Shown here piece after piece: positions 6,401 through 51,393 of a stretch of DNA of 51,393 bases. The translations under genes and the position numbers were made by a program. Each line of letters starts with the position of its first letter. The stretch's first letter is position 1. The notes beneath the pieces are model-generated. The model did not search any database. It was not told where the DNA came from and saw nothing but the letters and a program-made list of their open reading frames with translations. Source of the DNA: Naegleria gruberi (lineage: Eukaryota); assembly GCA_000004985.1 (NCBI GenBank), contig GG738939.1; one strand, written 5' to 3'.

Positions 6401-6499
6401 NNNNNNNNNNNNNNNNNNNNNNNNNNNNNNNNNNNNNNNNNNNNNNNNNNNNNNNNNNNNNNNNNNNNNNNNNNNNNNNTTCAATGAACAAATGTGGTA

Positions 6500-7075
6500 T
6501 CATGAATTTCTGCATATCCTCCTTGATGAGATTGAGGCTCCCTTCAATTGTTTGATCTCTTCTGTATTAATTTTTGTAAAGGTAGTGGAGGATAAACTTG
6601 TGCAATCTTGTGTAATTTGTAACTCGTCTCCAAGTGCTAGATCACAACTAGAATCATAGATCACATACATTGTTTTAAAATTTTCTGGTTTGGTAACAAT
6701 GGAATGTAATTGCACTTTACGACTGGCAAGGTACTTGTCAACTACCACAAATTGAGAGTCTTTCTTGAGTTGTTCTGGTAAACTGTTTTGAAGAGCTGAC
6801 TTGTTCTCAGTTGTTTGGGAATGATTAATATTCAAATCAGAGTCTTTCTTGAGTTTGTTTGTAAGAGATGACTCTGACTTGTTCTCTGCACGGAAAGGAT
6901 GTTTCCTTCCTTTACTTTTCTTTTTTAAAACTTGGAAACCTTTAGAATCATCATCTGATGTTATGAAATCTTCATCAGTAGAAGGAGGAGCAACATTTTC
7001 TTGCTTGTGAGAAGAAGTGGATTCTATTTCTTGATCGTTATCGCTTGTGAGTAGGTTGAAACTGTTGAAAGACAT
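6500..7075 (-). CDS. Hypothetical protein, 191 aa, Ser/Asp/Lys-rich and low-complexity, with no recognisable domain
   Basis: Genuine ATG at 7075..7073 (revcomp ATGTCTTTCAAC) and TGA stop at 6502..6500. Complete ORF in visible sequence. Divergent from the gene at 7244 with a 168-bp spacer. Confidence 0.5.
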   Translation of the reverse strand: MSFNSFNLLTSDNDQEIESTSSHKQENVAPPSTDEDFITSDDDSKGFQVLKKKSKGRKHPFRAENKSESSLTNKLKKDSDLNINHSQTTENKSALQNSLPEQLKKDSQFVVVDKYLASRKVQLHSIVTKPENFKTMYVIYDSSCDLALGDELQITQDCTSLSSTTFTKINTEEIKQLKGASISSRRICRNS

Positions 7076-7243
7076 TCGAAACTATTTTGTTAATTGTGTG
7101 TAAAGATGTTGTTGTTGTATTTTTTTGTAACAAGTACTTAAAAAGAAAGTGAAAATTCATGATTATTTATTATCATCCTCGATGAAACAAATTCCTACTT
7201 GTTGAATTAAGGCAAGGGTATTTGCAAAAATACAAATAAAAAA

Positions 7244-7465
7244 ATGTCCAAACATGTTTCCTCAAGCAACAGCACTAAGGTACCAAGAACTCAAGAAATA
7301 AAAAGAGAAAAGAACAAAGAATCCGACGATGAGGAAATCAAAATTGAAGAAAAGCTTCAACAACAGGAATACCAATTGTTGTCATCATCCAATACATTAA
7401 ATAGCAAAATGAGAAGAGAAGGCTCTGTGATGGTTTATGAAAGTTTTTACACATCAGAAAATAAT
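7244..7465 (+). CDS. 5' end of a protein-coding gene (N-terminal 74 aa: MSKHVSSSNSTKVPRTQEIKREKNKESDDEEIKIEE...), continuing into the masked block
   Basis: ATG at 7244 in an A-rich context (aaaaaaaATGtcc). The open frame runs to the mask edge at 7465. The product is charged and low-complexity, with no recognisable domain in the visible part. Confidence 0.4.
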
Positions 7466-30854: not shown

Positions 30855-33019
30855 GGTATCTACGTTGGCAGCAATGAATCCGAAATCCTTTCTATTGGTG
30901 AATTTAGATATCGAAGGAGCTTATGACTCTGTTGAAGTTTCTGTTATTGAATTAGCTCTAAAACATTGCAAATTTCCAATTAATTTAATTCAATTTATTA
31001 TTAATTCTTACAAAGAACACACTCTACAACTTGAAATCAATAACCACTTGTCCGAACCAATTACAAAATCCAGGGGAATCCCACAAGGTTGTCCATTATC
31101 ACCCCTGATTTATGATTGTATAACACAATTAATTATTGACAAAAGTATAGATGTTTGGAAATTACCAAAAGATCCTTGTAATCTTAATGCAAACGAAATA
31201 GGTATCCTTGGTTTTGCAGATGATATGTATCTTATTGCTGACACATCTGATATTAATACCGATTATAACGAAAGATTAAATGAATTAGATAGATGGGTAA
31301 CTGATCTTGCGTTAAAAATCAACCCTTCTAAATCAGTTGCAACAATACTGACTGAAAATGAATTGGATATAACCCCAAAAATTAATAATGTGAAAATTCC
31401 AATTCAGAAAAATATCAGAGTATTAGGTCATTATCCTTGGGAAGACCAACTTGTACAAGAAGATATTGAAAAAAGAATTTCCCTGTTTGAACTTTCCCTA
31501 AAATATCTTCCAATTAGATCATTAGAAATAAGAAATTTTAGAAAAGTAATCCAAGCTAAAGTATTGAGCCTATTCACACATATTACTCGTAGTAATGTTA
31601 TTTCAACCAAATATTGTGATAGAATTAATATTGCAATTAGACAAGCAATAAGAAGAAGAGGTAACTTACATTCAGCTACATCTACAGATTGGTTTCACTT
31701 ACCACTAGATCAAGGAGGTCTTAATATCCCTAAAATTGATGAATTTATTGAAAGACTACACATTAAGACCATTATGCAATTGAGAAATCAAAGAAATACC
31801 CTTGTCAGAAAAGCGTTTAACTGGGGAATTGATAATATTTCAAATTATAATTCAATATTCCATCAAATGAATCAAAGTTTGAAGCATTTTGACTTAACAT
31901 TTAATCAAAACTCAATAGAACCTTTAAGACCTTCAATTCTACAAGGTCAAAACTTTGAAATTTATACTGATGGATCGAAAATGGATGAAAATTCGACAGG
32001 ATTTGGTATCTACTTTCATAAAGGGGTAATTGAAGGAAATGAACAATTAAGCTTTAATATCGATGGAAGATACTCTCATAATGTAGCTGAATTGACTGCA
32101 ATTCTTATGGCTTCTAAATTATTACCTAATAATTCAAAAGCTACTATATTTACAGACAGCAAAATATCTATTGATATTCTAAATCCAAGATATGATGGGA
32201 AATTTTCCATTTTTAAAGATGAATTTTATAGAACAATATTTGATAAGAATTTGAAAATTAAATTGGAAAAGGTAAAAGGACATGTTGATCCTAATAATAT
32301 AATCGTTGATGAATTAGCCAAAAAGGGTTCGAAACAATATAATATTTCCATTGATATTAGAAAGCTTCTTCCTAATGCCATGTATTTAGAAAATAATGGA
32401 ACCATTATATTTGATCTACAGAATTATTTGAAAGGTATTCAAAGAGATAGGAGAGCTACCATTGCTAGAGATAAATCCAACCTAATTATAACCAAGGGAT
32501 GGTCCTCAGCAAATATCAAATACCTAAATTCTCATTTAGAACCTTACACCAAATTCTGTATCTGGAGAAACATGACAAATAATCATATTAGACAATACAA
32601 ACCCGTAAGCTGCTCGCACTGTGGAAGAATAGTTGAATTAGAACATTATATTTATTACTGTCCTGAAATGAGTGAAAAGCGAAACTACTTCTTGAATAAG
32701 TTCTATGAAATAACAAAATATAGAGCAATATTACATGATAGAAATGAATTTAGGTTTTCAAACAGATGGAAAGGATTCTTGATTAATCATAGAGGATTAT
32801 TAGATGAGAACAATCAAGATGAAATTAGAAGAAAATATCCATCAATTATTAGAAACTGGGTGGAAATTCAATCTTTACTGTCGTTACTTGTTGGTAAAGC
32901 ACATAAGAGATATTATCGTGATTTTCTTAAAACAAGAAAGAAAAACAAGAAGAAAACCAAAGAATAATCTATTTCGATTTCTAAAAAGATCCAATGGGTC
33001 TTTAATAAAGTTCAAAATA
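30855..33019 (+). mobile_element. Non-LTR (LINE-like) retrotransposon, copy A, 3' portion only; the 5' part is masked
   Basis: ORF2 C-terminal part with RT motifs (LVNLDIEGAYDSV, FADDMYLIA), an RNase H domain (FEIYTDGSK...AELTAIL...FTDSK...GHVDPNNIIVDELAKKG) and a CCHC knuckle (CSHCGRIVELEHYIYYCPE). 30855-31290 is 100% identical to 39566-40001 of copy B. A-rich 3' terminus ...gttcaaaataa. Confidence 0.9.
30856..32967 (+). CDS. LINE ORF2 C-terminal fragment (reverse transcriptase, RNase H, CCHC zinc knuckle); TAA stop at 32965-32967
   Basis: Frame continuous from the mask edge to the TAA. YxDD-type FADD motif, RNase H D/E/D/H residues, C-x2-C-x9-H-x4-C. The M at 30865 in the ORF track is a TTG codon (Leu), not a start. 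Confidence 0.9.
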   Translation, partial: VSTLAAMNPKSFLLVNLDIEGAYDSVEVSVIELALKHCKFPINLIQFIINSYKEHTLQLEINNHLSEPITKSRGIPQGCPLSPLIYDCITQLIIDKSIDVWKLPKDPCNLNANEIGILGFADDMYLIADTSDINTDYNERLNELDRWVTDLALKINPSKSVATILTENELDITPKINNVKIPIQKNIRVLGHYPWEDQLVQEDIEKRISLFELSLKYLPIRSLEIRNFRKVIQAKVLSLFTHITRSNVISTKYCDRINIAIRQAIRRRGNLHSATSTDWFHLPLDQGGLNIPKIDEFIERLHIKTIMQLRNQRNTLVRKAFNWGIDNISNYNSIFHQMNQSLKHFDLTFNQNSIEPLRPSILQGQNFEIYTDGSKMDENSTGFGIYFHKGVIEGNEQLSFNIDGRYSHNVAELTAILMASKLLPNNSKATIFTDSKISIDILNPRYDGKFSIFKDEFYRTIFDKNLKIKLEKVKGHVDPNNIIVDELAKKGSKQYNISIDIRKLLPNAMYLENNGTIIFDLQNYLKGIQRDRRATIARDKSNLIITKGWSSANIKYLNSHLEPYTKFCIWRNMTNNHIRQYKPVSCSHCGRIVELEHYIYYCPEMSEKRNYFLNKFYEITKYRAILHDRNEFRFSNRWKGFLINHRGLLDENNQDEIRRKYPSIIRNWVEIQSLLSLLVGKAHKRYYRDFLKTRKKNKKKTKE

Positions 33020-33036
33020 ATTTTTTTTTATTTGTG
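33020..33036 (+). repeat. 17-nt junction motif aTTTTTTTTTATTTGTG at the 3' boundary of LINE copy A, identical to the motif at the 5' boundary of copy B
   Basis: Exact 17/17 match to 36536..36552. Flanking sequence diverges immediately on both sides. The minus-strand reading is CACAAATAAAAAAAAAt. Confidence 0.8.
33027..33032 (-). promoter_or_regulatory. Candidate AATAAA polyadenylation signal for the minus-strand sterol desaturase gene, lying inside the LINE junction motif
   Basis: Plus-strand tttatt at 33027-33032 reads AATAAA on the minus strand, about 96 nt downstream of the TAA at 33130..33128. Confidence 0.35.
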
Positions 33037-33127
33037 GAATTGAACTCCGAAATAGTACAACTCCGGATTGAACTATAAAGTTCCTTATTTGTCAAGTGTT
33101 TAGTATTGAACACTGATGCTTACAAGG

Positions 33128-33968
33128 TTATTCTTGATGAATTTTATTCGATTCTGCTAGTTTCTTCTTTTGTTGTTTGAGTTTCCACTCAAAGAATCCA
33201 CCACAAGTTCCACACCAAATATCCCACCACATGAAATTCGATGAAAATACTCCACTACATCTACGATGATGAAAATCATGAAAATCAGCACCTCCAATTA
33301 AGTTTGGCGCCAAATTATTCGGAGAAAATGGGAAATCAAAGCCCGAATGAGTTTCACAAGCTGCCAATTGTCTAAGGTTGACAAAGATTAAGAGAGTAAG
33401 GAAGTGTGGACGGAGGAGAAGAGGTCCTAGAAAGGTGGCGAATCCAAGTATTAAAATTTCTAAGGGATGGGCGAAACTAGTGGAAAGTATAGTTGGAGAT
33501 TCGAATTCGTGATGGATTTTGTGGATGACGTGGTAGGCCCATGGTGTGTGAAGCCACCTATGGAACCAGTAGTGAGCTGTGTCTTCCATGAAGAAACAGA
33601 AAGCTAATTGAAGGAGAAGAACTTTCCAATTTGGGATATTCGAAACTTCGAGACTAAAGTAGTCAATTTGAGTAAGAAAGTGAAAAGCAACTGCATACAT
33701 TGGAAGAATCACCAAAAAGTAAATAAATAACAAATAGAATGTTGCCTTAACAATTTTCATTCCACTATTTTTCCTTTTCTGAAATAGTTTCGTCAAGGTT
33801 TCCAATAAAAATTTATATACTTACTGGTTGAATCTTATATTTCCTCAGAAAATCAAAGTCGCACCACTCTACCAACCACATCAATCCACTAGGAATGAAA
33901 TAATTCAAAAACAAAATGACAAATGGCAAGACAATTGTCACCATCGTGAGTGAATAATTCTCCAACAT
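33128..33968 (-). CDS. Fatty acid hydroxylase / sterol desaturase superfamily protein (ERG25/MSMO1-like C-4 methylsterol oxidase type). Two exons, join(33968..33825, 33778..33128), 264 aa
   Basis: Three histidine boxes (HRWLH, HKIHH, HDFHH) and N-terminal TM helices. Exon 1 starts at ATG 33968 and has 48 codons. A 46-nt intron (33824..33779, GTAAGT...TTTCAG) is phase 0/0 and removes an in-frame TAA. Exon 2 runs to TAA 33130..33128. The M at 33805 in the ORF track is a TTG codon inside the intron. Confidence 0.75.
33779..33824 (-). other. Spliceosomal intron, 46 nt, GTAAGT...TTTCAG
   Basis: The donor GT at 33824/33823 directly follows codon 48 (CCA). The acceptor AG at 33780/33779 precedes in-frame AAA AGG. 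Without splicing the frame hits TAA after 3 codons. Confidence 0.6.
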
Positions 33969-35940
33969 GAAATCCACAATTTCACCATTCCACCATCAAA
34001 GAATATTCAATTCTGATAAGTTATCATCTGGATAATCTGTTGATATATTAGATTCATNNNNNNNNNNNNNNNNNNNNNNNNNNNNNNNNNNNNNNNNNNN
34101 NNNNNNNNNNNNNNNNNNNNNNNNNNNNNNNNNNNNNNNNNNNNNNNNNNNNNNNNNNNNNNNNNNNNNNNNNNNNNNNNNNNNNNNNNNNNNNNNNNNN
34201 NNNNNNNNNNNNNNNNNNNNNNNNNNNNNNNNNNNNNNNNNNNNNNNNNNNNNNNNNNNNNNNNNNNNNNNNNNNNNNNNNNNNNNNNNNNNNNNNNNNN
34301 NNNNNNNNNNNNNNNNNNNNNNNNNNNNNNNNNNNNNNNNNNNNNNNNNNNNNNNNNNNNNNNNNNNNNNNNNNNNNNNNNNNNNNNNNNNNNNNNNNNN
34401 NNNNNNNNNNNNNNNNNNNNNNNNNNNNNNNNNNNNNNNNNNNNNNNNNNNNNNNNNNNNNNNNNNNNNNNNNNNNNNNNNNNNNNNNNNNNNNNNNNNN
34501 NNNNNNNNNNNNNNNNNNNNNNNNNNNNNNNNNNNNNNNNNNNNNNNNNNNNNNNNNNNNNNNNNNNNNNNNNNNNNNNNNNNNNNNNNNNNNNNNNNNN
34601 NNNNNNNNNNNNNNNNNNNNNNNNNNNNNNNNNNNNNNNNNNNNNNNNNNNNNNNNNNNNNNNNNNNNNNNNNNNNNNNNNNNNNNNNNNNNNNNNNNNN
34701 NNNNNNNNNNNNNNNNNNNNNNNNNNNNNNNNNNNNNNNNNNNNNNNNNNNNNNNNNNNNNNNNNNNNNNNNNNNNNNNNNNNNNNNNNNNNNNNNNNNN
34801 NNNNNNNNNNNNNNNNNNNNNNNNNNNNNNNNNNNNNNNNNNNNNNNNNNNNNNNNNNNNNNNNNNNNNNNNNNNNNNNNNNNNNNNNNNNNNNNNNNNN
34901 NNNNNNNNNNNNNNNNNNNNNNNNNNNNNNNNNNNNNNNNNNNNNNNNNNNNNNNNNNNNNNNNNNNNNNNNNNNNNNNNNNNNNNNNNNNNNNNNNNNN
35001 NNNNNNNNNNNNNNNNNNNNNNNNNNNNNNNNNNNNNNNNNNNNNNNNNNNNNNNNNNNNNNNNNNNNNNNNNNNNNNNNNNNNNNNNNNNNNNNNNNNN
35101 NNNNNNNNNNNNNNNNNNNNNNNNNNNNNNNNNNNNNNNNNNNNNNNNNNNNNNNNNNNNNNNNNNNNNNNNNNNNNNNNNNNNNNNNNNNNNNNNNNNN
35201 NNNNNNNNNNNNNNNNNNNNNNNNNNNNNNNNNNNNNNNNNNNNNNNNNNNNNNNNNNNNNNNNNNNNNNNNNNNNNNNNNNNNNNNNNNNNNNNNNNNN
35301 NNNNNNNNNNNNNNNNNNNNNNNNNNNNNNNNNNNNNNNNNNNNNNNNNNNNNNNNNNNNNNNNNNNNNNNNNNNNNNNNNNNNNNNNNNNNNNNNNNNN
35401 NNNNNNNNNNNNNNNNNNNNNNNNNNNNNNNNNNNNNNNNNNNNNNNNNNNNNNNNNNNNNNNNNNNNNNNNNNNNNNNNNNNNNNNNNNNNNNNNNNNN
35501 NNNNNNNNNNNNNNNNNNNNNNNNNNNNNNNNNNNNNNNNNNNNNNNNNNNNNNNNNNNNNNNNNNNNNNNNNNNNNNNNNNNNNNNNNNNNNNNNNNNN
35601 NNNNNNNNNNNNNNNNNNNNNNNNNNNNNNNNNNNNNNNNNNNNNNNNNNNNNNNNNNNNNNNNNNNNNNNNNNNNNNNNNNNNNNNNNNNNNNNNNNNN
35701 NNNNNNNNNNNNNNNNNNNNNNNNNNNNNNNNNNNNNNNNNNNNNNNNNNNNNNNNNNNNNNNNNNNNNNNNNNNNNNNNNNNNNNNNNNNNNNNNNNNN
35801 NNNNNNNNNNNNNNNNNNNNNNNNNNNNNNNNNNNNNNNNNNNNNNNNNNNNNNNNNNNNNNNNNNNNNNNNNNNNNNNNNNNNNNNNNNNNNNNNNNNN
35901 NNNNNNNNNNNNNNNNNNNNNNNNNNNNNNNNNNNNNNNN

Positions 35941-36537
35941 AACTATTCCAATAATGTTACTTATACTGCAATTCACAAAATTTAAATATTTTGTGCTAAT
36001 TCTGACTGACCCATTATCAATTATTAAGTTTGACATTTTCACACTTGGCATTCCTTCCATAATGAATAGTTTCGTATTTCTAATTATTAAATATTCAAGT
36101 TCCAAATTAATATTCTTTGAAAATTGAATAAATTCATCACACTCAATTACTGATAGAGAATCTGTTTCGAATGATTTCATTCTAAATGTTTGAAAACTAT
36201 TAAATATTTGATAATCCTGCAAATTATATGAACATCGCTTCATTTCTCCCATCACCATCACATCCAATATTCGAAACTCATCTATTTTCACATTTTCCAC
36301 AATAAAATTCACAATTTGCATAAAATCACCACATGGATCATCGGGTGAGAAACAGGCTTTGGAAGTTGTATTCGAAATTCCATCATCATTCAAGTAGAAA
36401 AACAATTCATTATCATCTATTAGATTGTGTGATGAAATTAAATTCGAATTTTCGGAAGAACACAAGCAAACACCAATCATCGATGATGATAGCATCAAAA
36501 AGGCGAGAAGCAGGGTTATATGTTGTGGTGATGACAT
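35941..36537 (-). CDS. N-terminal part of a secreted leucine-rich protein (signal peptide MSSPQHITLLLAFLMLSSSMIGVCLC); continues into the masked block
   Basis: ATG 36537..36535 in context aaaaaaaaATGTCATCA. Hydrophobic signal peptide. Downstream Leu/Ile/Asn-rich repeat-like segments (ELEYLIIRNTKLFIMEG..NLIIDNGSVRIS..LNFVNCSISNI). The frame is open to the mask edge. The track shows the same frame reaching a stop at 34054, but that stretch is masked. Confidence 0.55.
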
Positions 36538-36552
36538 TTTTTTTTATTTGTG
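36536..36552 (+). repeat. 17-nt junction motif aTTTTTTTTTATTTGTG immediately 5' of LINE copy B
   Basis: Identical to 33020..33036. The first T (36537) is the complement of the A of the minus-strand ATG of the secreted leucine-rich gene. Confidence 0.8.
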
Positions 36553-36565
36553 CGAAGTAAAAAAA

Positions 36566-37948
36566 ATGTCTAAACATCATCCTCCGTGGATTACAAAGAA
36601 CATAACAAAAGCAGGCCCCAGCTCTGCCAGAAATCTAAAGTCCACTAAAAGTCACACTAAGGAATTAATTTCCGTACCTAAAAATAATTTAAATTTTAAT
36701 TTTAAAATGTCTTATGCTGATGTTGTTAAACAAATTCCGAGATCGGAATCAAAATTGAAATCGGAATCAAAACAAATCGTGATTGCCAACCGAACTATTA
36801 ATATCAAGTCGGTTAATTTAAATTCAAGACAAAAAAAATTCAGTAGAAATATTAAGATGTCAGATAATAAGCAAATCGACTACGAAACTTGTATTTCAGT
36901 ATTTGTCCAACAACCAAATGAAGCATTTGAAGATTTAATTGTTAAGGAGGTTGGTCACTTATGTAATAGAATTTATGTTCCAGAATTGAAACCAAAACTT
37001 GTTCAATTAATTATAGATAGCAAAGAAAATTATCAAGAAGCAATAAGAATTCTCAATAATATGGTTACAAAAACTAATACGAAATTCCTTCCTTCCCCTA
37101 TGAACTTTACTCCAACTAATCATACCGTCAAATATCATTCAGAAAAATTAGATTTTATTAATCACCAAATTTCTAATATTATTGATGCAGTATGGCATAG
37201 TAAGATTAATATCTCACAAATGAATCTCAGTTTTGATAGAACTACTCAAATCTACAAGTTAAGAGTTGCTCTTATTAACTCAAATGGAAAAGATGAGCTA
37301 TTGAAAAATGGTTTTCAAGAATATAAGTCAATGGATCAAATTCTTAAAGAATGTCAATTTGAAGCCACCTGCAATTTCCCTACATCATTCCAAGAAAAGG
37401 ATATCATTGAGGCAGTTAAAGAAATTAGTAAATTGGCTGACGTTCAATTTCGTCGCAGTAACCTTACTATTACCAAGTTGAAAGCAACCTATCTCCATAA
37501 TAGAGAATATTATGCAGTTAATTACAAACTTCAAAACGAAGAGGAATTGAAAGCATTTATATCAAAGGCGATTAGATGTAAGGGATCTAAAGATAATTCC
37601 AAGAAAATCTTTAAAAGATTTAAATCTACTGCTGAATACTTGAAGAAGAAATTACAATCAAATAATACTGATAACCATGAAAATTTAACCAGTAGTTCTA
37701 TCATTATTGATATTAATAAGAGACTTACTAGAATGGAAGAGAAAATTGAAACTCAAGTTGCAAAGACTTCTAATCATGAACTAAAATTACAAAATTTTGA
37801 TGAAAGAATGAACAAGTTCTTAGAAAGTTTGGAACAATTAAGATTTTTAACAATGAATTTCAAGAATATTGGTAATGCAAAGGAAGGTATGAACGACGAA
37901 GGCTATGAGGATTACAATCCTCATGTAAATCACTCTCGTTATGATTGA
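36566..37948 (+). CDS. LINE ORF1 protein, about 460 aa, Lys/Asn-rich with a predicted coiled-coil C-terminal region
   Basis: First in-frame ATG at 36566 (aaaaaaATGTCTAAACATCAT), TGA at 37946-37948. No recognisable zinc knuckle. Heptad-like segment MEEKIETQVAKTSNHELKLQNFDERMNKFLESLEQL. Confidence 0.7.
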   Translation: MSKHHPPWITKNITKAGPSSARNLKSTKSHTKELISVPKNNLNFNFKMSYADVVKQIPRSESKLKSESKQIVIANRTINIKSVNLNSRQKKFSRNIKMSDNKQIDYETCISVFVQQPNEAFEDLIVKEVGHLCNRIYVPELKPKLVQLIIDSKENYQEAIRILNNMVTKTNTKFLPSPMNFTPTNHTVKYHSEKLDFINHQISNIIDAVWHSKINISQMNLSFDRTTQIYKLRVALINSNGKDELLKNGFQEYKSMDQILKECQFEATCNFPTSFQEKDIIEAVKEISKLADVQFRRSNLTITKLKATYLHNREYYAVNYKLQNEEELKAFISKAIRCKGSKDNSKKIFKRFKSTAEYLKKKLQSNNTDNHENLTSSSIIIDINKRLTRMEEKIETQVAKTSNHELKLQNFDERMNKFLESLEQLRFLTMNFKNIGNAKEGMNDEGYEDYNPHVNHSRYD

Positions 37949-40001
37949 TTTAAAATCTACTATCCGTGTGGGATGCTATAATGTAAATGGTCTAATTAGG
38001 ACAGGAAATTCTAAAGAAAAACTCATACAACCAATTAATGCAATGTGTAGATCTAATGGTATTCACATAATGTGTATAACAGAAACACATATCAATAATT
38101 ATGAATCTCAACAGAAATGTTATAATGAGTGTAATGGACATATTCTATTCAATTCCTTAATGAATACAAGAAAAGCTTGCAAGGGAACAGCAATTCTTCA
38201 TTTCTTAAATAACAAGAGAAAGAGATTTATTTCTAATCATAATATCATCAATGGTAAATTACAATGGTTTCGTTTCAAATCTAGAAACAAGATATTTAAT
38301 ATCATTGCGGGCTATTTATCAGGGAAAAAGGAAGAAGAAGATGATGATCAATTAGCTATGTCTCATATTATTGAAATTATGACTAAATTTAATGATGAAT
38401 ATTTTATTATAGCTGGTGATTTGAATATTGATAGTAATAACCCTATTTCCAAAAGAGATAAAGAATGGATGAATCTTCTAAAACAACTCAATATGTATGA
38501 AGACAAACAGCTTAGTCAAATATCATATAGAAGAAAACAGAAAGACAAGATCATTGAAACACACCCAGACCATATATTTGTATCAAATAATTTGAAAATA
38601 ATTGGAGGGAAAAGTCTACCATCTATAACTCACAATGATCATATACCTTTTTATATAGACATTCAATATGATTGCGATCCGACTTGGAGGGCATCTATTT
38701 CAAGGAAACATATAGAAACGTTATGTAGTACAATTAATCAAGAAACCTATTTATCATTTGATGAACTAGAACGGAATATTAAGAATAATTTTTTAAAGTA
38801 TTCATATAGGAATGATAAGCTTAATGTTAAATTCCTTTCGTCTAGAAAGCGAAAAGATATTAGAAGAATAGAATCAAAAATCAGAGAAATAATGGACAAA
38901 AAAGATCCAAAACAAGAACAGGAATTAATTACACTCCAAACAGAACTGAAAACTGTTTATAGAGAGGCTGCAAAAGAAATAAGAACAAATCTATTGGATC
39001 AATTTAATAGCCATAATTCTTCAGCAATGTACAGATTTGATAGACACCTTAAAGAAAAGACAATTAATTGGAATGAAATCTCATTTGATGAATCGACAGT
39101 TGTCAACTTCTTTCAGGATAAATTTACATCAAAAGTTGAAGATATTAATTTCATTCCAAGTAGGTCAACAATTAAGTATGGACCAAAAAGAATCAAATTT
39201 AAATTGGAAACTATCAAAAAAGCCCTTTTAAGAATGAGTTCTAATACTCCAGGAACAGATAATATTCCATTGTCTATAATAAGAGGTTTAAAAGATGAAC
39301 ATCTTCAACTCATTTGTGACAAATTTAATCAGTGCTTGGATAATGGTAATATTCCTTTGGAATGGAAAAATGGTTGGGTAAAATTAATTCCTAAACGAGA
39401 CATTATTTCTCTCAAAGATATTCGTCCGATTACTATCCTTCCAATTATGTATAGATTAATGTTTAATATTATTGCTTTTAAATTAAGGAAATGGGCTTCA
39501 GAGAATATAAATATACGTCAACAAGCATTTATACCAAAGAGGAATACCCTTAATCATGCAATATTGGTATCTACGTTGGCAGCAATGAATCCGAAATCCT
39601 TTCTATTGGTGAATTTAGATATCGAAGGAGCTTATGACTCTGTTGAAGTTTCTGTTATTGAATTAGCTCTAAAACATTGCAAATTTCCAATTAATTTAAT
39701 TCAATTTATTATTAATTCTTACAAAGAACACACTCTACAACTTGAAATCAATAACCACTTGTCCGAACCAATTACAAAATCCAGGGGAATCCCACAAGGT
39801 TGTCCATTATCACCCCTGATTTATGATTGTATAACACAATTAATTATTGACAAAAGTATAGATGTTTGGAAATTACCAAAAGATCCTTGTAATCTTAATG
39901 CAAACGAAATAGGTATCCTTGGTTTTGCAGATGATATGTATCTTATTGCTGACACATCTGATATTAATACCGATTATAACGAAAGATTAAATGAATTAGA
40001 T
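37941..40001 (+). CDS. LINE ORF2, N-terminal part: apurinic/apyrimidinic-type endonuclease domain and beginning of reverse transcriptase (partial; continues into the mask)
   Basis: ATG at 37941 lies within ATGATTGA and overlaps the ORF1 stop, in the +2 frame. Endonuclease motifs as above. RT motifs FIPKRNTLNHAI..LVNLDIEGAYDSV. Predicted full ORF2 is about 1245 aa, ending at 41678 by homology with copy A. Confidence 0.9.
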
Positions 40002-43000
40002 NNNNNNNNNNNNNNNNNNNNNNNNNNNNNNNNNNNNNNNNNNNNNNNNNNNNNNNNNNNNNNNNNNNNNNNNNNNNNNNNNNNNNNNNNNNNNNNNNNN
40101 NNNNNNNNNNNNNNNNNNNNNNNNNNNNNNNNNNNNNNNNNNNNNNNNNNNNNNNNNNNNNNNNNNNNNNNNNNNNNNNNNNNNNNNNNNNNNNNNNNNN
40201 NNNNNNNNNNNNNNNNNNNNNNNNNNNNNNNNNNNNNNNNNNNNNNNNNNNNNNNNNNNNNNNNNNNNNNNNNNNNNNNNNNNNNNNNNNNNNNNNNNNN
40301 NNNNNNNNNNNNNNNNNNNNNNNNNNNNNNNNNNNNNNNNNNNNNNNNNNNNNNNNNNNNNNNNNNNNNNNNNNNNNNNNNNNNNNNNNNNNNNNNNNNN
40401 NNNNNNNNNNNNNNNNNNNNNNNNNNNNNNNNNNNNNNNNNNNNNNNNNNNNNNNNNNNNNNNNNNNNNNNNNNNNNNNNNNNNNNNNNNNNNNNNNNNN
40501 NNNNNNNNNNNNNNNNNNNNNNNNNNNNNNNNNNNNNNNNNNNNNNNNNNNNNNNNNNNNNNNNNNNNNNNNNNNNNNNNNNNNNNNNNNNNNNNNNNNN
40601 NNNNNNNNNNNNNNNNNNNNNNNNNNNNNNNNNNNNNNNNNNNNNNNNNNNNNNNNNNNNNNNNNNNNNNNNNNNNNNNNNNNNNNNNNNNNNNNNNNNN
40701 NNNNNNNNNNNNNNNNNNNNNNNNNNNNNNNNNNNNNNNNNNNNNNNNNNNNNNNNNNNNNNNNNNNNNNNNNNNNNNNNNNNNNNNNNNNNNNNNNNNN
40801 NNNNNNNNNNNNNNNNNNNNNNNNNNNNNNNNNNNNNNNNNNNNNNNNNNNNNNNNNNNNNNNNNNNNNNNNNNNNNNNNNNNNNNNNNNNNNNNNNNNN
40901 NNNNNNNNNNNNNNNNNNNNNNNNNNNNNNNNNNNNNNNNNNNNNNNNNNNNNNNNNNNNNNNNNNNNNNNNNNNNNNNNNNNNNNNNNNNNNNNNNNNN
41001 NNNNNNNNNNNNNNNNNNNNNNNNNNNNNNNNNNNNNNNNNNNNNNNNNNNNNNNNNNNNNNNNNNNNNNNNNNNNNNNNNNNNNNNNNNNNNNNNNNNN
41101 NNNNNNNNNNNNNNNNNNNNNNNNNNNNNNNNNNNNNNNNNNNNNNNNNNNNNNNNNNNNNNNNNNNNNNNNNNNNNNNNNNNNNNNNNNNNNNNNNNNN
41201 NNNNNNNNNNNNNNNNNNNNNNNNNNNNNNNNNNNNNNNNNNNNNNNNNNNNNNNNNNNNNNNNNNNNNNNNNNNNNNNNNNNNNNNNNNNNNNNNNNNN
41301 NNNNNNNNNNNNNNNNNNNNNNNNNNNNNNNNNNNNNNNNNNNNNNNNNNNNNNNNNNNNNNNNNNNNNNNNNNNNNNNNNNNNNNNNNNNNNNNNNNNN
41401 NNNNNNNNNNNNNNNNNNNNNNNNNNNNNNNNNNNNNNNNNNNNNNNNNNNNNNNNNNNNNNNNNNNNNNNNNNNNNNNNNNNNNNNNNNNNNNNNNNNN
41501 NNNNNNNNNNNNNNNNNNNNNNNNNNNNNNNNNNNNNNNNNNNNNNNNNNNNNNNNNNNNNNNNNNNNNNNNNNNNNNNNNNNNNNNNNNNNNNNNNNNN
41601 NNNNNNNNNNNNNNNNNNNNNNNNNNNNNNNNNNNNNNNNNNNNNNNNNNNNNNNNNNNNNNNNNNNNNNNNNNNNNNNNNNNNNNNNNNNNNNNNNNNN
41701 NNNNNNNNNNNNNNNNNNNNNNNNNNNNNNNNNNNNNNNNNNNNNNNNNNNNNNNNNNNNNNNNNNNNNNNNNNNNNNNNNNNNNNNNNNNNNNNNNNNN
41801 NNNNNNNNNNNNNNNNNNNNNNNNNNNNNNNNNNNNNNNNNNNNNNNNNNNNNNNNNNNNNNNNNNNNNNNNNNNNNNNNNNNNNNNNNNNNNNNNNNNN
41901 NNNNNNNNNNNNNNNNNNNNNNNNNNNNNNNNNNNNNNNNNNNNNNNNNNNNNNNNNNNNNNNNNNNNNNNNNNNNNNNNNNNNNNNNNNNNNNNNNNNN
42001 NNNNNNNNNNNNNNNNNNNNNNNNNNNNNNNNNNNNNNNNNNNNNNNNNNNNNNNNNNNNNNNNNNNNNNNNNNNNNNNNNNNNNNNNNNNNNNNNNNNN
42101 NNNNNNNNNNNNNNNNNNNNNNNNNNNNNNNNNNNNNNNNNNNNNNNNNNNNNNNNNNNNNNNNNNNNNNNNNNNNNNNNNNNNNNNNNNNNNNNNNNNN
42201 NNNNNNNNNNNNNNNNNNNNNNNNNNNNNNNNNNNNNNNNNNNNNNNNNNNNNNNNNNNNNNNNNNNNNNNNNNNNNNNNNNNNNNNNNNNNNNNNNNNN
42301 NNNNNNNNNNNNNNNNNNNNNNNNNNNNNNNNNNNNNNNNNNNNNNNNNNNNNNNNNNNNNNNNNNNNNNNNNNNNNNNNNNNNNNNNNNNNNNNNNNNN
42401 NNNNNNNNNNNNNNNNNNNNNNNNNNNNNNNNNNNNNNNNNNNNNNNNNNNNNNNNNNNNNNNNNNNNNNNNNNNNNNNNNNNNNNNNNNNNNNNNNNNN
42501 NNNNNNNNNNNNNNNNNNNNNNNNNNNNNNNNNNNNNNNNNNNNNNNNNNNNNNNNNNNNNNNNNNNNNNNNNNNNNNNNNNNNNNNNNNNNNNNNNNNN
42601 NNNNNNNNNNNNNNNNNNNNNNNNNNNNNNNNNNNNNNNNNNNNNNNNNNNNNNNNNNNNNNNNNNNNNNNNNNNNNNNNNNNNNNNNNNNNNNNNNNNN
42701 NNNNNNNNNNNNNNNNNNNNNNNNNNNNNNNNNNNNNNNNNNNNNNNNNNNNNNNNNNNNNNNNNNNNNNNNNNNNNNNNNNNNNNNNNNNNNNNNNNNN
42801 NNNNNNNNNNNNNNNNNNNNNNNNNNNNNNNNNNNNNNNNNNNNNNNNNNNNNNNNNNNNNNNNNNNNNNNNNNNNNNNNNNNNNNNNNNNNNNNNNNNN
42901 NNNNNNNNNNNNNNNNNNNNNNNNNNNNNNNNNNNNNNNNNNNNNNNNNNNNNNNNNNNNNNNNNNNNNNNNNNNNNNNNNNNNNNNNNNNNNNNNNNNN

Positions 43001-43819
43001 NNNNNNNNNNNNNNNNNNNNNNNNNNNNNNNNNNNNNNNNNNNNNNNNNNNNNNNNNNNNNNNNNNNNNNNNNNNNNNNNNNNNNNNNNNNNNNNNNNNN
43101 NNNNNNNNNNNNNNNNNNNNNNNNNNNNNNNNNNNNNNNNNNNNNNNNNNNNNNNNNNNNNNNNNNNNNNNNNNNNNNNNNNNNNNNNNNNNNNNNNNNN
43201 NNNNNNNNNNNNNNNNNNNNNNNNNNNNNNNNNNNNNNNNNNNNNNNNNNNNNNNNNNNNNNNNNNNNNNNNNNNNNNNNNNNNNNNNNNNNNNNNNNNN
43301 NNNNNNNNNNNNNNNNNNNNNNNNNNNNNNNNNNNNNNNNNNNNNNNNNNNNNNNNNNNNNNNNNNNNNNNNNNNNNNNNNNNNNNNNNNNNNNNNNNNN
43401 NNNNNNNNNNNNNNNNNNNNNNNNNNNNNNNNNNNNNNNNNNNNNNNNNNNNNNNNNNNNNNNNNNNNNNNNNNNNNNNNNNNNNNNNNNNNNNNNNNNN
43501 NNNNNNNNNNNNNNNNNNNNNNNNNNNNNNNNNNNNNNNNNNNNNNNNNNNNNNNNNNNNNNNNNNNNNNNNNNNNNNNNNNNNNNNNNNNNNNNNNNNN
43601 NNNNNNNNNNNNNNNNNNNNNNNNNNNNNNNNNNNNNNNNNNNNNNNNNNNNNNNNNNNNNNNNNNNNNNNNNNNNNNNNNNNNNNNNNNNNNNNNNNNN
43701 NNNNNNNNNNNNNNNNNNNNNNNNNNNNNNNNNNNNNNNNNNNNNNNNNNNNNNNNNNNNNNNNNNNNNNNNNNNNNNNNNNNNNNNNNNNNNNNNNNNN
43801 NNNNNNNNNNNNTCATTAG

Positions 43820-44224
43820 TCAACTGCAAAATTAACTATTCTTAATATTAGTTGCAATCGAATTAATGATGAAGGAGCCAAATCACTTAGTCAATTGAAC
43901 CAATTAACAAACCTAAACATTAGACTAAACGAAATTGGAGATGAAGGCGCCAAATTTATTGGAAAAATGCAAAATCTAACTCTCCTCACCATTGATCACA
44001 ATCAAATTCAAACTCAGGGTGCAAAGTATCTCAGTAACTTGGTCAACTTGAAAACTTTATACATTCATGGAAATGAAAATATTGAAAGGGAAGGTTCCAA
44101 GGCAATTAGTGAAATGAAAGAGTTGAGAAGTGTAAAACTCGATCATATTCATATATTGTATGCAAATGTTAGATTTGGAATGAATGTTTCAGTTTCGTAT
44201 TACAACAAAAATAATTACATTTAA
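43820..44224 (+). CDS. Terminal exon of an RNI-type leucine-rich-repeat protein (24-aa repeats LxxLxLxxNxIGDEGAKxL). Upstream exons lie in the masked block
   Basis: Acceptor tcattAG|TCAACTGC at 43818/43819, with an in-frame TAG immediately upstream, so this is an exon start. Four or more tandem 24-residue LRRs. TAA at 44222-44224. AATAAA at 44228-44233. Confidence 0.65.
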   Translation, partial: STAKLTILNISCNRINDEGAKSLSQLNQLTNLNIRLNEIGDEGAKFIGKMQNLTLLTIDHNQIQTQGAKYLSNLVNLKTLYIHGNENIEREGSKAISEMKELRSVKLDHIHILYANVRFGMNVSVSYYNKNNYI

Positions 44225-44227
44225 TTG

Positions 44228-44233
44228 AATAAA
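44228..44233 (+). promoter_or_regulatory. AATAAA polyadenylation signal of the LRR gene
   Basis: gaATAAAc, 4 nt after the stop codon. Confidence 0.4.
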
Positions 44234-44335
44234 CAACAATTTCAATTTCTTACTCTGTTACAATTAAATATCAGTATGATATATATTTGAGTATAGGGGA
44301 AAAATTAATAGCATTGTAAAATATTAAATATATAT

Positions 44336-44797
44336 TTAGTCAACTTGTAACAATTTCAATAAATTCTCATAGTGCTCCATATCCCTTTCAATTCCATTAA
44401 TAATTTCCATCCACCACAATGAGGTTTCATCATATCCATACTCTTGCTCATGTTCTTCCCTCGATTTTTCACACTCTTTTCGATCCAATTCCAAATCTGA
44501 TAAAATCTTGAGAATTCCATCTTTCATTTCCTTCTTCATTTCTATCAAGTCAATAAATTGTTGTTGTGGTGAATTTGTATTTTCATCAAATTTCTTCTCC
44601 AAAATCTCCAGCATCATATTTGGAATTAAAAGACGATTGTAATATTCATTCCATAAATTTCTCCAAAAAATTCTGGAATTCATTACAATATTATGAGTTG
44701 ACCGATCGATTTGTAATATCGTTCCGAGGTGTTTTATGGAGAGAAAGTTGAAAATCTCTATGAGCACCTCTGGAGGCAAATCACTAAATGATGACAT
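44336..44797 (-). CDS. Small F-box protein, 153 aa
   Basis: ATG 44797..44795 (aaaaaaaaaATGTCATCA). N-terminal F-box LPPEVLIEIFNFLSIKHLGTIL. Acidic C-terminal half. Stop at 44338..44336. Single exon. Confidence 0.7.
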   Translation of the reverse strand: MSSFSDLPPEVLIEIFNFLSIKHLGTILQIDRSTHNIVMNSRIFWRNLWNEYYNRLLIPNMMLEILEKKFDENTNSPQQQFIDLIEMKKEMKDGILKILSDLELDRKECEKSREEHEQEYGYDETSLWWMEIINGIERDMEHYENLLKLLQVD

Positions 44798-44853
44798 TTT
44801 TTTTTTTGATTTAATTTAGATCAGGCAAAGTTCATCAGTGTTTGAATTTAATC

Positions 44854-44877
44854 TTTCAGTTTCGAATTACAACAAAA
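44854..44877 (+). pseudogene. Relic of the 3' end of a paralogous LRR gene: 24-nt segment matching 44187-44210 at 23/24, including the last codons and stop region
   Basis: tttcagtttcgAattacaacaaaa versus tttcagtttcgTattacaacaaaa. Encodes ..SVSNYNKI* versus ..SVSYYNKNNYI*. Lies in the spacer between the F-box start and the sphingomyelinase stop. Confidence 0.4.
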
Positions 44878-44927
44878 TTTAGGAAGAAACTGTATTTCAA
44901 AGAAACCTAGGTGTTATTTTAGTTTAT

Positions 44928-45919
44928 TTAGACACAATATGGATGTTTTCTAGCCATATTATAATTCAGCTCAGTTGTGATACCCAAATGATCACTCGGA
45001 GTTGGAGTTGAATCTCCAAATAATTGGAGTTTGAAGGAATTATTGGAATTCCATTCCAAAATTCTACTAAATTTATCAACCATGATATGATCCATTCCAG
45101 TATTTCTTTCTGGATCATCAGAACAATCGCCAATTTCCCAATTTAATCCATTCACACAGAAAGTTGCCTTATTTGGATCAATTGACTGATATCCATATCC
45201 AGCAAGTGTTTCATAACCTTCTGGTTGCGTCAATGGTCCACTATTCAAATCACCAACCAAGATATTAGGTCTCTTCATGATAACCATCCTAGAAAACTCT
45301 GGTTGATACATTACTGGCAAGTCAATCCCAAAATTAAAAGGAAAGTGTGACTCCATAATAAATAATCCATTGATACACATCTCTAATAATCCTCTACTCA
45401 ATAAAAATGAAGGATAGGAAGTGTAATTGGCACGTGAGATTGGTGTCTTACTCAGAACCATCAATCCATTGGAGCCGTCATAGAGAAATTCCTGACCTGT
45501 GTGTCCAGGAGTGTAACAATTGGCTATATTCTTATTCTCAACGACAGATGTCAGGACACAGGATATACATTTAAAGTTTCCATAGGCAGCTCGACTCAAA
45601 AATTCAGCACAAGGTCCCAAAGTTGTCCACGAAAGTGTCAAATTTTTTTCACGGACACAATGAAGGAAAGGAAGAGCGAATCTATGGAATGAATCATCCG
45701 TACAAGATGCTTCATTCACAACTTCCTTGTGTCCATGGAAGGAGTATGGATATGAGGATTTCAGCTCTTCAGAAATTAGGTGGGAATGAGATTGGAGCCA
45801 AACTTCTTGGAGAAAGACTACATCGAGGTCTTTTGGTATGGTTTCTATGATTTTCTTGACATTGACTGGTGTGCCAGGTACTAGAGCAGTATTAAAGGAA
45901 GCAATCTTTAAGTTATGTA
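44928..45919 (-). CDS. Neutral sphingomyelinase-like Mg-dependent phosphodiesterase (SMPD2/ISC1-type EEP fold). The N-terminal few codons are masked and there is no C-terminal transmembrane anchor
   Basis: The frame is open from the mask edge: ..HNLKIASFNTALVPG..DLDVVFLQEVW..YPYSFHGH.. through MDHIMVDKF and PSDHLGITTEL to TAA at 44930..44928. It aligns by eye motif-for-motif with human SMPD2 (LRIFNLNCWGIP / LLEEVWSEQ / RIDYVLYK / PLSDHEALMATL). The M in the ORF track at 45719 is GTG (Val). Confidence 0.8.
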
Positions 45920-49950: not shown

Positions 49951-50609
49951 TATCTACCCTCTTCTTATTGGAATAAAAACCAAAATCAATGTTAAAAGCA
50001 GCTTTTCCCAAAACGTCTATTCAACCAAGGTTGTGTTATGATATAACAGATCGACTCAGATCAGTAACTCATTGAGCTACGAAATTACTTACCCAATGTA
50101 AGATTCGAATATTCATTTACATCCAAAATCATAGATCCATTCTCTTTCAATCTCTCATTCCAAATTTCAAACAATAAATCACAAGACTTGTCAGCAACCT
50201 TACACACATACATTAAATTCTTTGGTGTGAAAGCTGCCGAACAAATCTTGTAATGTTTCTTCCATTTTTCAGTATTAGTAGCTGTCAAAATATTATCCTC
50301 TCCAAAGAAATTCACCACCTCATATCCTGGTTTCTCAAACAAATGACCCTTAGTAATGAAATATTCCTTCAACATTTTCGGATCACTAATAAAAACAAGT
50401 GGTGTGGTAGAAGTAGCAATACTCAAAGTTTGAGTTTCTGCATCTCCATACAACAAACAAGCCTTATCCAAATCCTCATCACTTGTTAGATAGAGATGAG
50501 TGGACAAGAAGGGAATTCTTATCGGAGAAAGTTCGAATACTTGCATCACCCCCGGAATGTGCTTAATTTTCGAGTGGATTTTATGGAGGGTGAATCGAAC
50601 AGTTTTCAT
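49951..50609 (-). CDS. Cytochrome P450, N-terminal region (CYP3-clan-like). Exon 1 50609..50093, intron 50092..50017, exon 2 50016..mask edge; continues into the mask
   Basis: ATG 50609..50607. Motifs IPG..PLVFISDPKMLKEYF..FGEDNILTATNTEKWKKHYKICSAAFTP (the W-x3-R/H-x7-F helix-C motif). Donor G|GTAAGT at 50093/50092 and acceptor aatAG|AC at 50018/50017 splice to ..EYSNLTLDVLGKAAFNIDFG.., the canonical TLDVIxxxAFG region. Reading through unspliced gives LTLGK*. Confidence 0.8.
50017..50092 (-). other. Spliceosomal intron, 76 nt, GTAAGT...AATAG, phase 1
   Basis: Splicing restores the conserved P450 sequence LTLDVLGKAAF. Unspliced read-through terminates at TAA 50087..50085. Confidence 0.65.
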
Positions 50610-50707
50610 AAAAAAGCATGAACCTAATTAAGGTTAGGAATTGTGAAATTTTCTATAAAAACAACTCAAAAAAACAATTTTTTCAAAATTTTCAAAAACA
50701 AAGCACA

Positions 50708-50998
50708 ATGACTCACAAATTCAAGAAAACTTATAACTCAAACCAAACAAGAAAATACGGCTATTATCACTGCACCGATTGTAACAGACATTGGGAAAGT
50801 GGGAATTCCTGGGAAGGTTTCACTCAACAATGTTCTCATTGCTTTCGACCAGTTTATGCCTACAAATTGGAGAGTTTAATTAGAAAAGATGAATTAGAAG
50901 AATTATTTGATGTGATTGATCGTTCAAAACCTCATCGTCAAGATTTATGTATGAAATGTCAAAAATTGGGATTTTATTGTAGGGAGAGTAAATATTAG
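50708..50998 (+). CDS. Small zinc-finger protein with a Zar1-like 3CxxC domain (97 aa from ATG 50708; an alternative upstream ATG at 50618 gives 126 aa)
   Basis: YGYYHCTDCNRHWESGNSWEGFTQQCSHCF...KPHRQDLCMKCQKLGFYC matches the Zar1/zf-3CxxC signature (YGYYHCKDC ... PHRQDLCGRCK). TAG at 50996-50998. AATAAA at 51021-51026. Confidence 0.6.
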   Translation: MTHKFKKTYNSNQTRKYGYYHCTDCNRHWESGNSWEGFTQQCSHCFRPVYAYKLESLIRKDELEELFDVIDRSKPHRQDLCMKCQKLGFYCRESKY

Positions 50999-51020
50999 AG
51001 AAAGTTTAATAAGGTTATTA

Positions 51021-51026
51021 AATAAA
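51021..51026 (+). promoter_or_regulatory. AATAAA polyadenylation signal downstream of the zf-3CxxC gene
   Basis: ttaAATAAAatg, 23 nt after the stop. Confidence 0.35.
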
Positions 51027-51240
51027 ATGCAAATCGTTTTGTAATTTTGTCACTTTCCATTTATAGAGTTTAATGATTTGTCATGGATCAACAATTTCAA
51101 TATCATTGTAAACTCTATGAAAGGTGAGTGTTGACCCCGCAAAATCACCTGATATCACTTGTTTTTGGCCAACAACACAGCGATATTGGTGACAGCTTTA
51201 AAAAATCATTCAAAAAAAAAACGACATCTGAAGGGCAAAC

Positions 51241-51393
51241 ATGCTGTTGAGTAACAGGTTGCATTATGCACTCTTGGTAGTGTTGGTATTATCCTCCCTC
51301 TTTGTGGTGTTGGCAGAACATGAACCTCTATCTGTCATTTCACAAAATCCTCCTTCGATGGCATTTGACAGCAATTTGAAATTGCCAAAAACA
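51241..51393 (+). CDS. 5' end of a gene encoding a protein with an N-terminal signal peptide (MLLSNRLHYALLVVLVLSSLFVVLA|EHEP...), partial at the window edge
   Basis: ATG 51241 (ggcaaacATGctg). 51 codons open to the window end. Hydrophobic core flanked by charged residues, with an AXA-like cleavage site. Confidence 0.45.
   Translation, partial: MLLSNRLHYALLVVLVLSSLFVVLAEHEPLSVISQNPPSMAFDSNLKLPKT

Follow-up and report, generated by a model that had tools for sequence, protein, structure and literature searches.

Probable insertion of a young LINE directly upstream of an orphan start codon, followed by subtelomeric duplication, in Naegleria gruberi

Long interspersed nuclear elements (LINEs) of the apurinic/apyrimidinic endonuclease (APE) type are the closest described parallel to an element found in a 51,393-nt stretch of Naegleria gruberi NEG-M DNA, here called the window. 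The window is a whole scaffold, 75% of which is masked, leaving as readable stretches 1-1015, 6480-7465, 30855-34057, 35941-40001, 43813-45919 and 49951-51393. The element has in common with APE-type LINEs an endonuclease, a reverse transcriptase (RT), a separate first open reading frame (ORF1), a target-site duplication (with flanks taken from two copies assumed to be duplicates) and an empty site. With the I, Tad1 and ingi-like LINEs that carry a C-terminal RNase H it further shares the ORF2 order of APE, RT, RNase H and Cys/His motif, an ORF1 that is separate and overlapping, and a target-site duplication of ~17 bp, a length typical of that group. It differs from them in that its ORF1 has no Pfam family or detected relatives, in the lack of a long poly(A) and in its extreme compactness. 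It falls outside the L1 clade, since its ORF1 has no Transposase_22 match and its ORF2 has an RNase H. An unannotated minus-strand ORF, the orphan gene, probably received this young LINE 15 bp upstream of its ATG, in an ordinary transposon insertion that was followed by subtelomeric duplication.

Other described LINEs resemble this locus in layout or position. The human L1 antisense promoter (ASP) is alike in that the LINE 5' end adjoins and diverges from a host gene, and any transcription of that gene would have to start in or at that end; the human ASP, however, sits in a 5' untranslated region (UTR) of ~900 nt, against 13 nt here. Telomere-associated LINEs (GilM/GilT of Giardia, Zepp of Chlorella, SART/TRAS of Bombyx, HeT-A/TART of Drosophila) are comparable in location, the Naegleria copies lying within ~40 kb of a chromosome end, but the Naegleria LINE is not in telomeric repeats or head-to-tail arrays; unique genes and a target-site duplication flank it, and no LINE is present in the visible telomere-proximal sequence (430-1015). 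The TRE5 and TRE3 elements of Dictyostelium are likewise LINEs of a protist with a compact genome, whose very short intergenic regions make an insertion near genes consequential. TRE elements target tRNA genes, whereas ARAGORN detects none in the readable sequence of the window, both junction flanks included. The subtelomeric position proposed in an earlier sequence-only reading of this DNA is borne out by a (CCCAAA)n telomere tract that fills the left end of the window (1-~425) and includes the variant units CCCCCAAA, CCAAA and CCAAAA and, near its end, a single CCGCGAA. The tract agrees with TTTGGG as candidate telomere repeat of N. gruberi (PMC3622300). The insertion junction is 36.5 kb from the chromosome end.

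The junction involves the following features:

36538..36565, no strand: 28-bp gap between the two ATGs, consisting of 15 bp of host leader (36538-36552) and 13 bp of LINE 5' UTR (36553-36565), by direct reading
36536..36552, no strand: left 17-bp target-site duplication ATTTTTTTTTATTTGTG, made up of AT of the start codon and the orphan's 15-nt A-rich leader (CACAAATAAAAAAAA in gene sense)
33020..33036, no strand: right 17-bp target-site duplication ATTTTTTTTTATTTGTG, directly after the 3' end of LINE copy A
36553..40001, plus strand: LINE copy B, visible 5' part, with 13-nt 5' UTR, ORF1 and ORF2 (APE endonuclease and RT), from translations and Pfam
30855..33019, plus strand: LINE copy A, visible 3' part, with the end of the RT, RNase H, a CX2CX7HX4C motif and the stop codon at 32965-32967, from Pfam and sequence
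35941..36537, minus strand: orphan ORF, visible N-terminal 199 codons, the rest being masked, from translation, codon usage and a start kept in an environmental relative

The CAT at 36535-36537 on the plus strand is the start codon of the orphan ORF, and the ATG at 36566-36568 opens the 460-aa plus-strand ORF1 (36566-37948). Direct reading confirms the earlier placement of the two start codons, at 36537 and 36566, exactly 28 bp apart. The sequence-only reading also had the minus-strand gene start at a junction motif, and this motif is real: ATTTTTTTTTATTTGTG occurs exactly twice in the window, at the two positions listed, against 0.16 occurrences expected at up to 2 mismatches. In gene sense it reads CACAAATAAAAAAAAAT(G), that is, the orphan's A-rich leader running into its start codon. 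The earlier location of the LINE 5' end needs correction in part. The LINE does begin inside the gap, but it accounts for just 13 of the 28 bp, the other 15 bp being the orphan's own leader, and its 5' end is placed at 36553, starting CGAAGTAAAAAAAATG.

The insertion can be compared with an empty site in a 2575-bp environmental metagenome contig, L001 (ENA ERZ929261), whose oxidase protein is 99% identical to that of the window. The parts of the window that this comparison involves, besides the junction, are:

33128..33968, minus strand: C-4 sterol methyl oxidase gene (FA_hydroxylase, one short intron), from Pfam; identical to XP_002668883.1 of N. gruberi NEG-M
33037..33127, minus strand: native upstream region of the orphan gene (91 bp), also the oxidase 3' flank, collinear with L001 2414-2506 at 97%
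43820..44224, plus strand: 3' part of a 309-aa F-box-like/LRR_6 gene, from Pfam LRR_6 and LRR_8; the full ORF is in L001

By blastn, L001 matches the window in three collinear pieces. Its positions 1-489 match 44299-43815 at 98.4% (the 3' part of the F-box-like/LRR_6 gene), 1490-2506 match 34054-33035 at 97.2% (the oxidase gene and its 3' flank), and 2523-2575 match 36544-36492 at 90.6% (the orphan's leader and its first 15 codons). L001 has 116 bp after the oxidase stop, and next comes ATGTCCACACCACAACAT..., which encodes MSTPQHATLLLAFLM; the LINE is absent. The start codon of the orphan is conserved there, as are the in-frame stop upstream of it and the hydrophobic N-terminus. In the window, the oxidase 3' flank (33127 down to 33037) meets the 3' end of LINE copy A, and the orphan start meets the 5' end of copy B. 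When the LINE is taken out together with one of the two motifs, so that 33160-33037 is joined to 36552-36480, the reconstruction aligns with L001 end to end, with 11 mismatches, one 10-nt indel and a score of 297, against scores of 203 and 54 for the LINE-containing junctions. The sterol methyl oxidase gene is the upstream neighbour of the orphan gene in the uninterrupted locus. The empty site has a single stretch homologous to ATTTTTTTTTATTTGTG, and because the L001 junction differs in sequence from the window motif, a collapse of the two 17-mers during assembly cannot explain it. The sequence-only reading is therefore upheld in proposing an insertion just upstream of the start codon and a native upstream region now found on the far side of the LINE, 91 bp of that region (33037-33127) abutting the 3' end of the sister copy; the locus without insertion that it had named as a comparison is supplied by L001. 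Two further loci, L002 (70% identical, a paralogue or an orthologue) and L003 of N. lovaniensis, do not carry the orphan gene downstream of the oxidase and are uninformative for this comparison.

A structural model of insertion upstream of the ATG, displacement of the native region and duplication of the resulting unit can be put forward with high confidence. Target-primed reverse transcription would have begun from a nick on the sense strand of the gene, at the A-run/ATG boundary, a placement that follows the established logic of this process, and a second nick 17 bp upstream would have given rise to the 17-bp target-site duplication. The orphan gene would have kept its ATG and 15-nt leader, beyond which the 13-nt LINE 5' UTR and the divergent ORF1 ATG would follow, and these two short segments account for the 28-bp gap. 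The native upstream region of ~106 bp and the sterol methyl oxidase gene would have been displaced by 5.2 kb, to the LINE 3' end. Later, the whole [gene-LINE-oxidase] unit would have been duplicated in tandem with a period of about 8.7 kb, which explains why the same 17-mer is present at the copy B 5' and copy A 3' junctions and why the two copies are identical where they overlap.

The duplication is indicated by the identical LINE copies, the identical 17-mer junctions, the oxidase gene between the LINEs and the position of the leucine-rich repeat (LRR) gene. In L001 the LRR gene is the neighbour of the oxidase gene. If the predicted end of LINE copy B at 41730 is followed in turn by the 17-mer, by the 91-bp flank, by another oxidase copy and by an intergenic region as in L001, the model puts L001 position 1, just past the LRR gene stop, at window position 44251; it maps to 44299, off by 48 bp. 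The [orphan gene-LINE-oxidase] unit thus appears to be tandemly duplicated across the masked ends, with LINE 5' ends at 36553 and, as predicted, at ~27842. The model also places a second oxidase copy at ~41.8-42.7 kb, in the mask 40002-43812, and the 23-kb mask at 7466-30854 could hide further units.

Several points weigh against this account of insertion and duplication. Its flanks are seen on two different copies that are assumed equivalent, the 3' end of B and the 5' end of A being masked, and the putative full-length 5' end at 36553 comes from a single insertion event. L001 is no exact allele, for the 10-nt indel and several substitutions fall within the motif region. The integrity of the orphan gene is readable over 199 codons only, 1.9 kb of it being masked.

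The element itself, judged from its sequence, is a recent, compact, apparently full-length APE-type LINE. ORF2 begins at 37941 and overlaps ORF1 by 8 nt (ATGATTGA, 37941-37948). Its residues 13-227 match Pfam Exo_endo_phos (E 1.7e-6), an N-terminal APE-type endonuclease; RVT_1 is found in both copies (E 2e-21 in B, 4e-19 in A), and in copy A RNase_H lies downstream of it. Matches of the RT in the Protein Data Bank (PDB) are the R2 and L1 ORF2p RTs, with L1 ORF2p a distant relative (E ~1e-14) and no closer than R2. Copies A and B are identical across a readable overlap of 436 bp. Spliced together, they yield a 1245-aa ORF2 with no interruption and an inferred element length of 5178 bp, which puts the 3' end of copy B at a predicted ~41730, inside the mask. 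The visible parts of both ORFs are intact. The element is ~99% coding, with a 5' UTR of 13 nt (36553-36565, CGAAGTAAAAAAA) and a 3' UTR of 52 nt (32968-33019); AATAAA at 33004-33009 is followed by GTTCAAAATA(A), and the element ends ...CAAAATA, without a long poly(A). ORF1 has no Pfam family even at E<=10 and no homologues in the protein database or in JGI metagenome contigs, and the metagenome contigs give no match to ORF2 either.

Both ORFs at the junction begin in a context that recurs in this genome. An A-run followed by ATG TC(N) (Met-Ser) is found at the orphan gene, the F-box gene at 44797, an ORF at 7244 (7238-7249) and L001 2522-2535, and the orphan start (36529-36545) and this F-box gene (44789-44805) have the 17-mer AAAAAAAAATGTCATCA in common. 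From its sequence, this context looks like a Kozak-like consensus of the N. gruberi genome, and its presence at ORF1 argues that 36566 is a genuine ORF1 start. A 12-nt perfect inverted repeat, GACATTTTTTTT/AAAAAAAATGTC, spans the 28-bp gap because both ORFs use the A-run and ATGTC start context. The head-to-head layout and the small inverted repeat would accordingly be by-products of a shared start context and not an evolved bidirectional module.

The ORF at 7244 (window 7232-7465, plus strand; MSKH...) is preceded by ACAAATAAAAAAATG and imitates the junction motif together with the first four residues of ORF1. As a candidate for another LINE 5' end it was rejected: its DNA and protein similarity do not exceed those of shuffled controls, and the resemblance is a coincidence of the common start context.

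Such a recurrent context could act as a target, and with the same 17-mer at two junctions and ACAAATAAAAAAATG preceding the 7244 ORF as well, it might be proposed that the LINE is site-specific, recognising an A-run/ATG leader motif (CACAAATAAAAAAAAATG-like), and that A and B inserted separately at the starts of two paralogous genes. This is highly improbable. Independent events are not expected to yield duplications alike in both length and sequence, the two copies are identical over 436 bp, and the spacing to the LRR gene fits a duplicated [gene-LINE-oxidase] unit within 48 bp; the 7244 ORF is unrelated to the LINE, and a single visible kind of junction gives no target preference.

The gene next to which the LINE landed is stop-free over all 199 visible codons, for which the chance at this base composition is ~5e-8, and its codon usage is host-like in its own frame only, the codon-usage score being positive there alone. 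An in-frame TAA 12 nt upstream of the ATG makes 36537 the first ATG of the ORF. The N-terminus, MSSPQHITLLLAFLMLSSSMIGVCLC, has a single hydrophobic core (residues ~6-20) followed by polar SSENSN, and an N-terminal signal peptide is plausible from this sequence. The sequence-only reading had described the protein as containing leucine-rich repeats; this is not supported: leucine makes up 9.5% of the visible 199 aa, and no Pfam family, LRR included, is found in them even at E<=10. The real LRR gene of the region, going by its sequence, is the F-box/LRR gene ending at 44224, which is distinct from the minus-strand orphan.

A word-indexed search of a protein database of 5.8 billion clusters finds no homologue of the orphan ORF, and no annotated NEG-M protein matching it was found in the database. 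An exhaustive phmmer search against 1.84 billion representatives gives as sole match P0017, a bacterial protein with five SLH repeats. It was rejected as a homologue, since each of the five repeats matches the same residues 48-79 and the summed scores inflate the E-value. The resemblance of these residues (36301-36396, minus strand), YLNDDGISNTTSKACFSPDDPCGDFMQIVNFI, to the bacterial SLH motif GITNGTSD.TFSPD..CTRAQ.VTFL of P0017 is probably due to chance. A single-sequence AlphaFold model of the 199 aa has a mean confidence (pLDDT) of 38.7 and is uninformative. The length of 827 aa that the ORF seems to have is an artefact of reading through N, 1883 bases being masked, and its apparent stop at 34054 falls in sequence that in L001 is the upstream region of the oxidase gene.

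The missing homologues among both sets of sequences, the missing NEG-M annotation, the uninformative structure prediction and the unreadable 1.9 kb raise the question of whether the orphan ORF was already non-functional or decaying; and as assembly is difficult where identical repeats lie close to the end of a scaffold, the two-copy structure might in part be an assembly artefact of the 2010 Sanger scaffold. On either account, the 28-bp layout would have no consequence. This explanation is quite unlikely in view of the 199 stop-free codons with host-like usage in that one frame, and of an independent environmental contig that preserves its start codon, the in-frame stop before it and the hydrophobic N-terminus.

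The probable insertion would have left the orphan with very little of its own upstream sequence. It retains 15 nt of native leader, and everything further upstream is antisense sequence of the LINE. The native upstream region, ~106 bp in all, also holds the 3' end signals of the oxidase gene. Promoters of N. gruberi are compact, judged from two natural divergent gene pairs in the window, a P450 gene and a 3CxxC zinc-ribbon gene with 98 bp between their ATGs (50610-50707) and a second pair with 168 bp (7076-7243), and these distances make ~106 bp plausible as the orphan's whole promoter. The antisense 5' end of the LINE shows no similarity to this native region (alignment score 9, below the shuffle mean of 9.7). 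On the preferred reading, at about even odds, this copy of the orphan would have lost its promoter and become silent or weakly expressed, and the ORF would be intact only because the event is young. The surroundings are unfavourable, since 5-methylcytosine (5mC) in Naegleria occurs in transposons only (PMC12695648).

With only 13 nt of 5' UTR, the promoter of the LINE must be internal, and regulatory rewiring by this promoter offers another possible outcome. In this scenario the 5'-proximal internal promoter would fire divergently or antisense and drive the orphan, and the chimeric unit would have been kept and amplified because it is expressed. The visible 199 codons are intact, with ATG, leader and consensus start context kept, and there are at least two insertion-bearing units; the genome has tiny promoters, with just 98 bp shared by a divergent pair, and LINE antisense promoters occur elsewhere, as in the human L1 ASP. 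Rewiring nevertheless seems unlikely. Since the copies are identical, an intact ORF is uninformative on selection since insertion; transposons form the 5mC-marked compartment of the genome (PMC12695648), the LINE antisense 5' end is unlike the native upstream region, and no annotated NEG-M protein matching the orphan was found in the database. A more specific proposal, in which the LINE 5' end is a putative bidirectional promoter that keeps an orphan secreted-protein gene expressed while the chimeric unit amplifies in the subtelomere, is very unlikely. A putative stronger version would have the LINE prefer to nick A-run/ATG leader boundaries and so regularly end head-to-head with genes. Spliced-leader trans-splicing is not known from Heterolobosea, and nothing at the orphan locus points to it.

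Some further observations concern the sequences around the locus. Within the native upstream region, a direct repeat of CGGAGTT with 16-nt spacing (33041-33070, minus strand; TCCGGAGTTGTACTATTTCGGAGTTCAATTCC) is conserved in L001 and, from its sequence, may be a promoter or 3'-end signal. The oxidase ORF of L001 is open for ~45 codons further upstream (MKSNISTDYPDDKLSELNFFDGG...; L001 1490-1571); the homologous part of the window (33971-34057, minus strand) is out of frame and has a stop, and the NEG-M annotation starts later still, at MVTIV. At the opposite end of the scaffold, an ORF start at 51246-51393 (plus strand) has a signal-peptide-like N-terminus, MLLSNRLHYALLVVLVLSSLFVVLAEHE..., and runs off the right end.

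The insertion is ordinary transposon biology: it reveals no new mechanism, and regulatory rewiring is not supported by anything here. Its value is that of a clean and datable case, in a heterolobosean, of a 5' leader hit by a LINE, accompanied by an empty-site reference, a 17-bp target-site duplication and a later tandem duplication. The locus could serve as a natural experiment on Naegleria promoter size, asking whether a gene with 15 nt of native leader fires, and it could test the spread of transposon 5mC into a neighbouring gene. It could also mark recent LINE activity and subtelomeric amplification in N. gruberi.

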